In this document: positions 10,810 through 26,401 of the stretch, piece after piece
Layout: each line of letters opens with the position of its first letter
Position numbering within the stretch: position 1 is the first letter of the stretch
Assembly: GCA_965277255.1 (NCBI GenBank)
Contig: CBDICL010000005.1
Location: 28,963 to 92,962, forward strand
Direction of reading: 5' to 3'
Length of the DNA stretch: 64,000 nucleotides
Source of the DNA: Flavobacteriaceae bacterium
Lineage (GTDB): Bacteria; Bacteroidota; Bacteroidia; Flavobacteriales; Flavobacteriaceae
Translations under genes and position numbers: made by a program
The notes under the pieces: model-generated
The model's database searches: none
What the model was told of the DNA's origin: nothing
Seen by the model: the letters and a program-made list of their open reading frames with translations, nothing else

Positions 10810-11087
10810 TATTTTTTCTTTCTACCTGTTCTAGTTTTTCCTGCTACAGCAGCTGGAATATCACCTAATTGGTTTCCAACTTCTTTTACAGCGTCTTTTA
10901 CATCTTGCATCTCTTGAACTACTCTTTTAGCTCTTTCTTTAATTTCAGCTGCAGCTTCTTCTGCAACATCTGCAATCATGTCTTTATCATCATCTTTAAT
11001 TTTACCAGTATACATATATACTAAATAAAAGTTTAATAAGATTGATAAAATAGAAATTGTGATTAGTGTAATAGTTAGTGTATTCAT
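10809..11087 (-). CDS. N-terminal TM plus coiled-coil protein (paralog of 40055..40333)
   Basis: 62/92 residues identical to 40055..40333 by manual alignment. Confidence 0.85.
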   Translation of the reverse strand: MNTLTITLITISILSILLNFYLVYMYTGKIKDDDKDMIADVAEEAAAEIKERAKRVVQEMQDVKDAVKEVGNQLGDIPAAVAGKTRTGRKKK

Positions 11088-11102
11088 AATATAAAATTTA
11101 AA

Positions 11103-11435
11103 TTAACAGTTCCATCTTCTACGAGCAGCTTTACCTCTTTCTGAGGACCAGCTTTTTGATCTCGCACAAAATGCTTTTCTTCTTTTAGCAGCTTTACTTC
11201 CAGGCTTTAATTCACTAGGAGGTGTTGTTACTGCTGTCTTTAGTTTACTTCCAGGATTATCACGTCTATATTTAGCCGTACCTTTAGCTGTCATTCCTCC
11301 GCCTGCAGCAGCACCTGTTCCAGTTGGTTTAGCTTCATTATAGTATCCTAATGATTTCTTTTTAGACGGAGCTGGCGGTTTAGCTTTCTTAAATAAAGGC
11401 GATTGCTGAACTCTTGATGTAATTGGCTTATTCAT
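11103..11435 (-). CDS. Basic conserved phage protein
   Basis: 110 aa, K/R-rich; GGGMTAKG..KYRRDNPGSKLKTAVT...RRKAFCAR...AARRRWNC. Confidence 0.8.
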   Translation of the reverse strand: MNKPITSRVQQSPLFKKAKPPAPSKKKSLGYYNEAKPTGTGAAAGGGMTAKGTAKYRRDNPGSKLKTAVTTPPSELKPGSKAAKRRKAFCARSKSWSSERGKAARRRWNC

Positions 11436-22036: not shown

Positions 22037-22067
22037 TTTGTTATGTGCAAATTGCACTATAATTTTG
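22037..22067 (+). promoter_or_regulatory. Bacteroidota sigma-A type promoter (-33/-7)
   Basis: TTTG (22037-40), 19-nt spacer, TAATTTTG (22060-67): exact match to TTTG-N19-21-TAnnTTTG at the head of the plus-strand arm. Confidence 0.6.
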
Positions 22068-22151
22068 AACTATTTCGTAGTAACCTCGCCCACACCCTGT
22101 TACCGTTTCGGGATTTAACCTCAGCACTTACTTCGAACCGATCTGTGTTTT

Positions 22152-22185
22152 TTACATACTAAACACGGTACCATCTGGATAATAT
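22152..22185 (+). repeat. 34-nt early-region element, copy 1
   Basis: TTACA TACT AAACACGG TACCATCT GGATAATAT. Confidence 0.8.
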
Positions 22186-22231
22186 AGTTAGGCTCCGACC
22201 TCAACCACACCCATCGACGGTAACATATTTT

Positions 22232-22265
22232 TTACAACCTTAACACGAACCTCTTTGGATAATAT
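22232..22265 (+). repeat. 34-nt early-region element, copy 2
   Basis: TTACA ACCT TAACACGA ACCTCTTT GGATAATAT; 27 nt upstream of ATG 22293. Confidence 0.85.
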
Positions 22266-24023: not shown

Positions 24024-24057
24024 TTACAAACTAAATACGAACAACAATGGATAATAT
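24024..24057 (+). repeat. 34-nt early-region element, copy 5
   Basis: TTACA AACT AAATACGA ACAACAAT GGATAATAT. Confidence 0.85.
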
Positions 24058-24110
24058 ATACGAATCAGAAATAACAGAATATACTTATAACTTAATATGC
24101 TATACACACA

Positions 24111-24311
24111 ATGACTAACACATGGATATTTTATGGTAAAGACCATAGCGGAATTAAAACAATACACCACATTAAACAATGTAAACGCCCTGAAGCAACA
24201 AGCGAATACAAAGAAATGATGCACTTACTAGAAAATAATACTTATTACACAACAGGATATATGACTAGTAAAGCATGGAATAAAAATAACCAATATATAA
24301 AAGTAATATGA
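24111..24311 (+). CDS. 66-aa early protein
   Basis: ORF track; downstream of element copy 5. Confidence 0.65.
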   Translation: MTNTWIFYGKDHSGIKTIHHIKQCKRPEATSEYKEMMHLLENNTYYTTGYMTSKAWNKNNQYIKVI

Positions 24312-24645
24312 ACAAATTATAATTTACTACAGGTGTAGAAACAAGTAGCGGAAAAATCAATACTTGCTTAACGAATATCAGATCTCTGATAAATTTGGAA
24401 ACTACTGGATAAGTAATAAACCTTGTAAAAATTACAACTTAGATCATATATAAAAATTCACTAATGTATTGACAAAACAATACACTGGCAACTTACAGAT
24501 AATAATGATGATATGCTAATAACCCTGATTTATGAATTAGAATTAAAAATTAAACAACAAATATTATTTACATAAACCATTGAACAACTAACAAAAATTT
24601 AAAATTCGACTATTAGAATAAATTTGCATATCTACACACAAACAA

Positions 24646-24881
24646 ATGAAATCTATGTAGTATTACACGATCCATTAAATGAACTGGGAAAATAATGTAT
24701 TCTATTAAGACCAGACTTTGATATTCTAATAGAAACTATATCAGAATTAGATGAAGATGCTATTGTATACTGCTCAGATGTAGATGAATTCTTTCCTGAG
24801 TATGAAGTTGAAAACTTTATTGAATGCAATGATGAAGAATACAAAGTTGATAATGGAGTAATTAATTATTTTACAAAGTAA
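24646..24881 (+). pseudogene. Interrupted acidic ORF (start out of frame by one base; in-frame TAA at 24693)
   Basis: One frame reads IYVVLHDPLNELGK*CILLRPDFDILIETISELDEDAIVYCSDVDEFFPEYEVENFIECNDEEYKVDNGVINYFTK*; stop lies inside element copy 6. Confidence 0.45.
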
Positions 24882-24904
24882 ACACGAAGCATAACGGATA
24901 ATAT
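24871..24904 (+). repeat. 34-nt early-region element, copy 6
   Basis: TTACA AAGT AAACACGA AGCATAAC GGATAATAT. Confidence 0.85.
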
Positions 24905-24935
24905 TAACAAATAACAAACACAATTATATAAACAC

Positions 24936-25082
24936 ATGACACTACACGACGTATACATACTAGATAAAATAAATGAAAACAAAATGCATACAATGCATGA
25001 GAAAGCTTATATCGCTAAAAATAAATATCGAATAAAGTTACCAACTGAAACATTAAATGACTACTTTTACAATAACAAATAA
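24936..25082 (+). CDS. 48-aa early protein
   Basis: MTLHDVYILDKINENKMHTMHEKAY...YFYNNK. Confidence 0.6.
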   Translation: MTLHDVYILDKINENKMHTMHEKAYIAKNKYRIKLPTETLNDYFYNNK

Positions 25083-25120
25083 TACGACAATAGCAATTTA
25101 AATAACAGGCTAACGTCACA
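25083..25120. promoter_or_regulatory. Dyad (operator-like) site, copy 2
   Basis: TACGACAATAGC-N14-GCTAACGTCACA; intergenic; orientation inverted relative to copy 1. Confidence 0.7.
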
Positions 25121-25132
25121 AAACAAACAACA

Positions 25133-25282
25133 ATGGGTAAATTAATTATAACATATAAAGGTGAACAACTAGAATACTTAATCAATACAAAAGTAGCTGA
25201 CCACATATCTATGAAAGCTATTGAACACATATTAAAAGAATTCCCACCTGAGGCACCCGTTGATTTTATAGAACTATATTAA
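25133..25282 (+). CDS. 49-aa protein
   Basis: MGKLIITYKGEQLEYLINTKVADHISMKAIEHILKEFPPEAPVDFIELY. Confidence 0.65.
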   Translation: MGKLIITYKGEQLEYLINTKVADHISMKAIEHILKEFPPEAPVDFIELY

Positions 25283-25287
25283 ATATT

Positions 25288-25434
25288 ATGGCAGGAAATA
25301 AACACAACACACAATTTGCTATACACAAACCTAATACATATCAGTTAGTGTATAAAGATTTATACAACGAAAAATGTATAATGACTGGAACACCAAAACA
25401 AATTATAAACTACATACTTAACCAGCAACTATAA
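25288..25434 (+). CDS. 48-aa protein
   Basis: MAGNKHNTQFAIHKPNTYQLVYKDLYNEKC...ILNQQL. Confidence 0.6.
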   Translation: MAGNKHNTQFAIHKPNTYQLVYKDLYNEKCIMTGTPKQIINYILNQQL

Positions 25435-25439
25435 CATAT

Positions 25440-25602
25440 ATGATGGTCCTCTACCCCGTTGGCTTCGGCGAGGATAAGGATTAGCTACCTGAAGAACCCG
25501 CACAAGGGACACCATCATTATAATATTAAAAGCTACAGAGGATTACCGACGGGTAAATATAATCTCGAGATGAAGTAAGGGTAATGTTCCTTCTCCTCTG
25601 TA
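25440..25602 (+). ncRNA. Candidate structured RNA (two tandem multi-stem domains); strand uncertain
   Basis: GC-rich intergenic island. Closing stems ATGATGGT/ACCATCAT (25440-47/25511-18) and TACAGAGGA/TCCTCTGTA (25534-42/25594-602); inner hairpins TTACC-GACG-GGTAA, AAGGG-TAATGT-TCCTT, C-UUCG-G. Confidence 0.5.
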
Positions 25603-25637
25603 CCATATTAAATAATAACTTTAAAACAACAATTAAA

Positions 25638-26210
25638 ATGAAAAAAACTATCTTAACATTAATTACAATTGCAAGTGTATCTTGCACAGTAGACTTTGAC
25701 GATATGAATTTTTATATCGATGAGCTTAAAATGATTGAACAAATAAATTTAAATGAAGCCACACAAACACAAACGCAATCAACAACATTAACTACAACTG
25801 TATCTAATACATTATATAATAATATACAAAGTAAATTAGATTGGGTTGCTTATTTTAACACTTGGTCTGTTAGAGATCATCAATGGCTTCAATACATAGA
25901 GGCTCAAGAACCGGGTTTTACAATGTTATTTAACTTTGAAAACAATCAAATAAACATACCTAATATGCCTACTTGGAGTTATCCTTTAGATGGTCAATAC
26001 AAAATTGAAAATCAAAATAATATTATTGTGGCCTTAATTAAAGATGAATCTAAACGTATTGCAGATATACCTGAAAATTCAACACATATAAGATTTGTAT
26101 ATAGATATTCAAGTGATGAAACATTATATACACCTTATGTTGAAATTAAAGAATTATATAATAAATTCTTTGTAAACTATCAAGGAGAAATAACATATTC
26201 AAACAATTAA
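25638..26210 (+). CDS. Predicted lipoprotein
   Basis: Likely start MKKTILTLITIASVSC: signal peptide with lipobox Cys, followed by a T/Q-rich linker. Confidence 0.7.
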   Translation: MKKTILTLITIASVSCTVDFDDMNFYIDELKMIEQINLNEATQTQTQSTTLTTTVSNTLYNNIQSKLDWVAYFNTWSVRDHQWLQYIEAQEPGFTMLFNFENNQINIPNMPTWSYPLDGQYKIENQNNIIVALIKDESKRIADIPENSTHIRFVYRYSSDETLYTPYVEIKELYNKFFVNYQGEITYSNN

Positions 26211-26214
26211 TATT

Positions 26215-26379
26215 ATGTCAAAACAATATAAAAAGAAAAAAGAATTAATAATAACTGATCCTACAAAATTCCCTGATGACTTTTGGAACTACTGGGTAAA
26301 CCCTATTGTTGGTTATTATATACCACAAAAAAGATCACAAACAAGAAAAGAATCAAGAAAAAAACAATTACAATCTTAA
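26215..26379 (+). CDS. 54-aa protein
   Basis: MSKQYKKKKELIITDPTKFPDDFWNYWVNPIVGYY...KQLQS; stop lies inside element copy 7. Confidence 0.65.
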   Translation: MSKQYKKKKELIITDPTKFPDDFWNYWVNPIVGYYIPQKRSQTRKESRKKQLQS

Positions 26380-26401
26380 CACGAACATTAACAGATAATT
26401 A
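26368..26401 (+). repeat. 34-nt early-region element, copy 7
   Basis: TTACA ATCT TAACACGA ACATTAAC AGATAATTA. Confidence 0.75.

Follow-up and report, generated by a model that had tools for sequence, protein, structure and literature searches.

Two putative four-way-junction RNA modules in the early region of marine flavobacterial phages

We analyzed a 64,000-nucleotide stretch of DNA (the window) from the assembly of a Flavobacteriaceae bacterium. The window is phage DNA: it encodes tail fibers, an Erf-like annealing protein, an exonuclease, a primase/helicase, thymidylate synthase, ribonucleotide reductase, and a sigma-like factor. Its genes lack Shine-Dalgarno sequences, and by the primase/helicase, the nearest cultured relative is Cellulophaga phage phi10:1 (41%). 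From these three observations, we take the window to belong to a phage whose host is a marine bacterium of the Bacteroidota. The window is part of a 117-kb contig (C7), in an assembly of 25 contigs that includes several related phage-sized ones. C7 appears to join about 1.9 units of two related phage genomes of 62-65 kb, and it matches itself at 66-97% identity with an offset of ~62.6-65 kb. (Further related phage-like contigs are C9, C10, C19, C21, and C25.) C7 ends, at 117301, within a second copy of the module D1 that is described below, so the assembly graph was probably broken by conserved modules. The assembly is tangled around the window, and independent metagenome contigs confirmed the order of the 48-aa ORF, D1, and D2.

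The region of interest lies in a plus-strand arm of tiny early ORFs, with a 48-aa ORF on one side and a lipoprotein-like gene on the other. An earlier note, made from the sequence alone, had pointed to a GC-rich island in AT-rich surroundings at this place. The island is indeed there: across 25436-25605, the GC content is 41-56%, as compared to ~27% in the background. (Measured over 100 nt, it is 0.41-0.46, and over 50 nt it reaches 0.56; the flanks are at 0.23-0.30.) The features in and around the island are:

24871..24904, plus strand: nearest upstream copy of a 34-nt early promoter-like motif, where the transcript with D1 and D2 likely starts
25288..25434, plus strand: 48-aa ORF directly upstream of the modules, a usual but not obligatory neighbor
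25440-25518, perhaps 25436-25522, plus strand: module D1, a probable four-way-junction RNA of 79 nt
25523..25533, plus strand: A/U-rich, single-stranded linker between D1 and D2, whose 3' part is conserved directly upstream of D2 in all lineages
25534..25602, plus strand: module D2, a very probable four-way-junction RNA of 69 nt
25603..25605, plus strand: CCA directly after the closing stem (P1) of D2, mostly conserved, but CAA or CCG in some homologues
25638..26210, plus strand: lipoprotein-like gene downstream of D2, with no functional tie to the element
26368..26401, plus strand: next downstream copy of the 34-nt promoter-like motif

The 48-aa ORF is 60-92% identical at the amino acid level (tblastn) across the group A loci, that is, the relatives that carry this ORF. 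Searches of Pfam and the Atlas gave no lead for it. Among the loci, the lipoprotein-like gene is present only in the window, L018, and L041. It had no match in Pfam or PHROG, and related viral loci were not found when we used it as bait. There are no RNA-related enzymes among the genes that neighbor D1 and D2. At ~24440-24580, the window has a frameshifted remnant of a small gene that is intact in another contig (C18).

The 34-nt promoter-like motif is present on the plus strand of the window at 22152, 22232, 22444, 22877, 24024, 24871, and 26368. Many related metagenome contigs also have it, and its distance upstream of the modules is similar there. Where we found it in the group A relatives, the motif nearest to D2 was about 0.3-1.2 kb upstream (mostly 540-680 nt) and was never adjacent. 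We did not find terminator-like sites on the plus strand of 24800-26400. Given a promoter-like motif well upstream and no terminator nearby, we infer that D1 and D2 are co-transcribed with the early ORFs; they are probably read through in an early polycistronic transcript that starts ~0.57 kb upstream. As for the rest of the early arm, its strongest other GC island (22056-22245, 0.52-0.54) covers the first two copies of the motif. The ~45-nt segment between those two copies ends in a T run and may be a very short transcript or a small RNA.

Exact-pattern scans of IMG/VR and of marine metagenome contigs found homologues in about 45 marine viral or metagenome contigs, as well as three obvious chance matches. 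These homologues are close relatives that were found by exact words, so their diversity is limited and their conservation is partly ascertained. In cultured phages, blastn did not find a homologue, just an AT-rich chance match. Beyond the source assembly, we did not find the element in bacterial genomes, either in the 60 related genomes that we searched with DNA or in the 150 genomes from the family that we searched with a model (R1). The model gave six weak matches, all at chance level; we checked two of them in context and they were ordinary sequence (the match in L057 lies within a protein-coding ORF of 386 aa). Scanning bacterial genome contigs for 18-mers gave one chance match. There is one copy of D1 and of D2 per genome, with no extra copies in the window, the other loci, or the rest of the assembly. 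Searching the literature did not turn up a description of the element.

The earlier note had suggested running Infernal's cmscan against Rfam, and this did not find a known family. At the gathering thresholds, there were no hits in the whole window or in four of the other loci. With E up to 10, the only match in 25300-25750 was a chance match to a CRISPR-DR family, outside of the element, and two homologous loci (L002 and L005) gave chance-level rows only. ARAGORN reported 0 genes at the default, 80%, and 60% thresholds and in mitochondrial mode. At the 60% threshold, 136 of 200 random windows (68%) score, and D1 and D2 do not. To see if the element mimics a host RNA, we compared it to the assembly with short blastn, which gave only chance words of 12-14 nt.

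The earlier note had folded the island by eye into two closed multi-stem domains, and all of the stems that it named are in the sequence. These include the closing stems of 8 and 9 bp, the 5-bp hairpin at 25543-56, another hairpin at 25577-92, and a 10-nt palindrome at 25562-71. Our models of the two modules, all on the plus strand, are:

25440-47 with 25511-18, plus strand: D1 P1, 8 bp, with a possible 3-bp extension with a bulge
25448-50 with 25471-73, and 25455-58 with 25466-68 and 25470, plus strand: D1 P2, with a 7-nt loop (25459-65)
25477-79 with 25488-90, plus strand: D1 P3, with an 8-nt loop (25480-87) that contains a 6-nt palindrome
25497-99 with 25506-08, plus strand: D1 P4
25534-42 with 25594-602, plus strand: D2 P1, 9 bp
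25543-47 with 25552-56, plus strand: D2 P2, 5 bp, with an invariant 4-nt loop (25548-51)
25562-64 with 25569-71, plus strand: D2 P3, 3 bp, part of the 10-nt palindrome
25577-81 with 25588-92, plus strand: D2 P4, 4-5 bp, with a loop of 6-8 nt across homologues
25557-61, 25572-76, and 25593, plus strand: D2 junctions

By thermodynamics alone, these folds are not convincing: the folding energy is unremarkable, with MFE z-scores of -1.26 for the whole region, -1.1 for D1, and -2.3 for D2. It is the comparative evidence that puts the element beyond chance.

For D2, 96.4% of pair cells are standard pairs across 19 distinct sequences from three phage lineages (although counts of pair cells are not counts of independent events). 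If the partners are slid, as a control, then just 45-58% are paired. Every helix of D2 has compensatory changes, which affect 7 of the 22 pairs (4 in P1 and 1 each in P2, P3, and P4), and none of 500 shuffles reached the covariation score. The MFE fold is the same across all variants. Among the wobbles, G.U occurs in 22 cells and A.C in 2, which indicates that the plus strand is the one that folds. (This asymmetry would also fit folded single-stranded DNA of the same strand.) D2 is 86-99% identical among the homologues, as compared to 72-88% for the adjacent coding sequence. Because the two halves of D2 were ascertained by different patterns, the invariance of each half can be tested with the hits from the other half's pattern. 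The P2 loop is invariant in the hits from the 3'-half pattern, and P3 and the P3/P4 junction are invariant in the hits from the 5'-half pattern. Compensatory substitutions beyond controls are the generic sign of a conserved structured ncRNA, and D2 has them. We are confident that D2 encodes a selected RNA structure, and an uncharacterized structured phage RNA on the plus strand, as the earlier note had proposed, is supported by this covariation and by the conservation of both domains.

For D1, 99.7% of pair cells are paired across 18 distinct homologues, but this reflects conservation more than covariation. There is just one compensatory pair, 25457:25467, which changes from C:G to U:A in three distinct sequences, along with 12 one-sided changes that are compatible with wobble pairing. 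The covariation score was reached by 28 of 500 shuffles, so the compensatory substitutions in D1 go beyond the controls only weakly. D1 is 92-99% identical, while the adjacent 48-aa ORF is 72-88% identical at the DNA level, and the variation in D1 is concentrated in the P3 loop, the P4 loop, and the length of P4. Because D1 is so conserved that only a single pair changes on both sides, its fold is probable rather than proven, and it probably encodes a selected RNA structure. The letters of the C-UUCG-G loop that the earlier note had placed in D1 are present, but this is not the favored fold. The pairing with the tetraloop shows zero double changes, and the covariation of 25457:25467 supports a 4-bp stem with a 7-nt loop (25459-65) instead.

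We also considered if a 39-aa ORF (25459-25578) might be coding, and rejected it. Such an ORF would run through D1 and D2 alike, and these are found apart from each other and in several orders; in addition, the length of D1's P4 changes by 2 nt. In two relatives (L002 and L003), there is an insertion of 34-50 nt between the 48-aa ORF and D1. The insertion opens with a mini-ORF of three codons (ATG, one sense codon, and a stop) and is delimited by a repeat of the 7-nt word in front of D1.

D1 and D2 share a common junction layout. In both, P1 leads directly into P2, the P2/P3 linker starts with AUA, the P3/P4 linker starts with GAAG, and the last linker, back to P1, is 1-2 nt (1 nt in D2). Some of the relatives carry another module in the same intergenic region, which we call H3 and which is absent from the window:

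L002:8642-8741, minus strand: H3
L013:4360-4459, minus strand: H3
L019:5027-5126, plus strand: H3
L053:4286-4385, plus strand: H3

H3 is a long imperfect hairpin of ~80 nt, with A-rich internal loops, no U tract, and one compensatory pair (A:U to G:C). Other GC-rich long hairpins follow D2 in L005 (11290-11380, minus strand), L003 (5540-5650, minus strand), and L004 (290-370, plus strand). These are mutually unrelated, lack a U tract, and have outer stems that are G/U-rich on one side and A/C-rich on the other. In L005, the loop of the hairpin and an 8-nt word just before the hairpin are complementary, so a pseudoknot is possible there.

Palindromes of 6 nt are found in the P3 loop of D1, at 25482-87, in P3 of D2, at 25564-69, and in the apical loop of H3. 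In D1, the hexamer is converted to another palindrome by two substitutions (in L019 and L051). In D2, a position that flanks the hexamer is swapped from U:A to A:U. The apical loop of H3 has 8 nt, with the palindromic hexamer inside and flanks that vary freely. These observations, from 3 of 7 loops and one double substitution, are suggestive of self-association between loops. We also considered palindromic hexamers as restriction sites, and their counts in the window are not unusual.

The earlier note had described a tandem structured RNA, but D1 and D2 are not a single tandem unit; in other loci, they are found apart and in different orders:

Window and most loci: 48-aa ORF, D1, D2
L002: D1, D2, H3
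L013, L019, L033, and L037: D1, H3, D2
L034: H3, D2
L053: D1, H3
L049: D2 before the 48-aa ORF
L005 group: D2 alone, following an unrelated gene
L018, L041, and L021: D1, and D2 with its 3' half deleted

Both modules are always in the sense orientation relative to the flanking genes. Where H3 lies between D1 and D2, it is inserted exactly at the linker. The phage with L005 shares just 1.4 kb with the window's contig, at 44% amino acid identity, yet its D2 is 91% identical; and this D2 lies in the same kind of early arm of small ORFs, upstream of replication genes, as in the window. By their distribution, D1 and D2 appear to have been traded among distantly related marine flavobacterial phages and recombined with H3 in several orders.

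The modules are also lost from close relatives. L018, L041, and L021 are the closest relatives of the window (97% identical lipoprotein), and they carry a D2 that lacks its 3' half (in L018, the truncated D2 is at 11085-11153 on the minus strand). In L018 and L041, the deletion joins similar 9-nt words, one in D2 and one in H3. The loss of the 3' half implies that D2 is not essential even where D1 is kept. In the same assembly as the window, C18 is 96.6% identical upstream of the modules and 99.2% identical downstream (C18:2051-2860 as compared to 24024-25700 of the window), but it lacks both D1 and D2. In C18, the 48-aa ORF and the lipoprotein gene overlap, the stop codon of the former with the ATG of the latter. 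With losses in such close relatives, any benefit of the modules must be conditional. Overall, D1 and D2 are separate modules that behave as accessory genes: they are single copy, dispensable, and apparently gained or lost between near-identical phages.

The earlier note had also suggested that the element might be a leader for the lipoprotein gene. Depending on the locus, the genes downstream include the lipoprotein, a homologue of the ORF at 26215, two other unrelated ORFs, and the 48-aa ORF, and at least six different genes follow the element in relatives. Because the downstream genes differ, the element is not a lipoprotein leader. Similarly, near-identical C18 joins the upstream ORF straight to the start of the lipoprotein, with the element absent.

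Given the strong selection on both the fold and the loop sequences, the patterns of conservation, loss, and reshuffling fit accessory RNA modules. The explanation that we lean towards, tentatively, is that D1 and D2 are stand-alone folded RNAs whose invariant loops let them act, early in infection, on a partner protein or on one another. Each module would be a compact four-way junction with a closing stem of 8-9 bp. Without a promoter motif of their own, the modules would be carried in the early polycistronic transcript. Once folded, they might persist there or else come away from the A/U-rich linkers as RNAs of ~70-85 nt. The invariant loops and junctions could then bind a host or phage protein, and the 6-nt palindromic loops might allow kissing-loop homodimers. 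The likely role would be in early host takeover or counter-defense, and the neighboring gene would not be regulated. As to a phage-encoded partner, no protein consistently co-occurs with the modules (even the 48-aa ORF is missing from the L005 group). A bolder possibility, which we think is unlikely, is that D1, D2, and the relatives' H3 are phage "RNA morons", that is, self-associating (kissing-loop) or catalytic RNAs that are exchanged as cassettes and neutralize a host factor or defense early on. If this is true, they would be the RNA-only counterpart of the small anti-defense proteins that are encoded around them.

Alternatively, the modules and the H3-type hairpins might be punctuation that acts in cis on the early polycistronic mRNA, as signals for processing or stability. 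By analogy, RNase P or Z-like enzymes would cut the four-way junctions and an RNase III-like enzyme would cut the long hairpins, which would separate the cistrons and protect their ends. Parallels for this include the tRNA punctuation of mitochondria, the mascRNA element in MALAT1, and the RNase III sites in the early mRNA of T7. Several observations are consistent with punctuation. The modules lie between genes, in the sense orientation throughout, and lack their own promoter or terminator. The topology of D2 is tRNA-like: its closing stem has 9 bp, just 1 nt links this stem to the last arm, and the CCA that follows is mostly conserved. The H3-type modules are long and imperfect hairpins that lack U tracts. 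At the cassette-free locus in C18, the two genes are translationally coupled. We nevertheless consider it improbable. The early arm has many gene junctions, but there is only one copy of each module per genome, and the loops and junctions are conserved far beyond what a generic nuclease signal would need. Also, T-loop and D-loop features are absent (ARAGORN was negative even at 60%), and CCA is replaced by CAA or CCG in several homologues.

Known small ribozymes occur in the intergenic regions of phages, often with several classes side by side. It is conceivable, but quite unlikely, that one or both modules belong to a new class of self-cleaving ribozymes and process the early transcript. This would fit with the phage setting, with having several unrelated structured modules in one intergenic space, and with the combination of invariant junction nucleotides, covarying stems, and peripheral loops and stem lengths that vary freely. 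However, we did not find a candidate for an active site in a pseudoknot or an internal loop, and no known class matched at E up to 10 (for twister-sister, twister, pistol, and hatchet, we checked the window, L002, and L005). The hammerhead is a three-way junction with CUGANGA, stem II, GAA, stem III, and the cleavage site. The earlier note had remarked on hammerhead-like words in D1, and a CUGANGA-like word is there, but the core segment that should come after the putative stem II is absent (25509-11 is not GAA), the junction is four-way, and Rfam's models did not match. Twister-sister requires conserved nucleotides in the P1-P2 internal loop and in one hairpin loop (PMC5660989); these are absent from the plain helices of the modules, and P1 of D1 and P1 of D2 have no internal loop.

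We also doubt that the modules act as DNA, whether as recombination joints, protein-binding sites, or single-strand-DNA structures (such as an origin or priming signal) that would mediate the exchange of cassettes. Insertions, deletions, and swaps do tend to end at module borders or at short shared words, as in the L018 deletion and the C18 junction; assembly breaks fall inside D1; and the modules contain perfect palindromes of 6-10 bp. But recombination at such places follows from their conservation and does not have to be the reason for it. Furthermore, four nested helices are preserved by compensatory changes, and 22 G.U wobbles versus 2 A.C would not be expected at double-stranded protein sites. 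The closest parallel for a DNA-level element would be the PeSL (promoter-early stem-loop) cassettes of T4-type phages, which have an early promoter and a terminator-like stem-loop and are present in many copies per genome (PMC2839356, PMC4122927). The modules share one trait with PeSLs, as rearrangements end at the cassette. We rejected a PeSL-type cassette because the 34-nt motif is never in or next to the modules, which also lack a terminator-like site and are present once per genome.

It is very unlikely that the element is a riboswitch or another cis-regulatory leader that controls the downstream gene. It does lie upstream of a gene, in the sense orientation, with conserved core nucleotides and with tandem domains that recall the arrangements of glycine and glutamine riboswitches. 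But a riboswitch would keep its place in the 5' UTRs of genes with related functions and would have an expression platform. Here, the downstream genes differ among loci and can be separated from the element by other modules, and we found neither a terminator nor a platform for sequestering the start codon. The earlier note had seen a partial resemblance to the glnA glutamine riboswitch, whose model is a three-stem junction with an E-loop and a pseudoknot; neither the Rfam model for glnA (RF01739) nor the Downstream-peptide model matched at E up to 10.

Finally, it is scarcely credible that D1 and D2 are tRNA genes, however degenerate or highly unusual, or that they mimic tRNAs as decoys for tRNA-targeting defenses. 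They are tRNA-sized (79 and 69 nt) and have a cloverleaf topology, and most homologues have an RCCA-like sequence after the closing stem of D2. But detectors recognize a tRNA by its 7-bp acceptor, its D arm, an anticodon arm with a 5-bp stem and a 7-nt loop, and a T arm with a T-loop, and ARAGORN was negative in all four settings. At E up to 10, there was no match to Rfam's tRNA and tmRNA models either. Where the anticodon arm would be, the arm has 3 bp and a 4-nt loop, the T-loop motif is absent, and the linkers are unlike those of tRNA.

If D1 and D2 are accessory RNAs, as we tentatively favor, then they bear on how the early regions of phages are understood. These regions are generally seen as series of genes for tiny accessory proteins. 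D1 and D2 appear to be folded RNAs that evolve like accessory genes (single copy, dispensable, traded, and reshuffled), and they are under stronger sequence constraint than the adjacent proteins. To our knowledge, almost no ncRNAs have been described from phages of marine Bacteroidota, and D1 and D2 provide them with a well-supported new RNA family, with covariance models ready to use. Furthermore, C7 and C18 form a natural pair, with and without the modules, in one assembly, which makes a functional comparison straightforward. If the modules turn out to be catalytic, self-assembling, or anti-defense, they would represent a new class of phage accessory function.

How do D1 and D2 compare to known systems? 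The RNase III hairpins in the early mRNA of T7 and the put antitermination RNAs of phage HK022 consist of one or two simple hairpins, and their positions are fixed. As with D1 and D2, these are structured elements between or ahead of phage early genes, and theirs act at the RNA level. D1 and D2 differ in being four-way junctions that are movable and dispensable (homology to these systems was compared through Rfam only). With the glnA riboswitch and the hammerhead, the element shares a few short words and a multi-stem junction, but Rfam gave no match at E up to 10, part of the hammerhead core is missing, and the downstream gene is inconsistent. The modules resemble tRNAs and mascRNA-type elements in their size, the four-helix cloverleaf, the long closing stem, and the mostly-conserved CCA after D2. 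Unlike tRNAs, they have no anticodon arm and no T-loop/D-loop signature, their junction linkers differ, and ARAGORN and the Rfam tRNA models were negative.

Two RNAs are relevant to the palindromic loops: the pRNA of phi29, which is a phage early-region RNA that oligomerizes, and the DIS of HIV-1, which is a site of kissing-loop dimerization. As in the HIV-1 DIS, there are 6 self-complementary nt within an 8-nt apical loop in P3 of D1 and in H3, and P3 of D2 is palindromic, although dimerization is hypothetical here. As for phi29, the pRNA model in Rfam did not match, and the window's phage has terminase-type packaging.

Like PeSLs, D1 and D2 are conserved intergenic cassettes in a plastic early region, where genes are inserted, deleted, or swapped between close relatives (PMC2839356, PMC4122927). 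Unlike PeSLs, they are single-copy four-way junctions with covarying helices, and both the phage's promoter motif and a terminator are absent from them. Taken together, D1 and D2 are an undescribed structured RNA family that is absent from Rfam. They resemble the orphan structured RNA motifs (PMC2864571) in forming a GC-rich intergenic island in an AT-rich genome, with conservation and covariation. They differ from those motifs in that none of the listed families matches and in that several unrelated modules are reshuffled inside a phage early operon.
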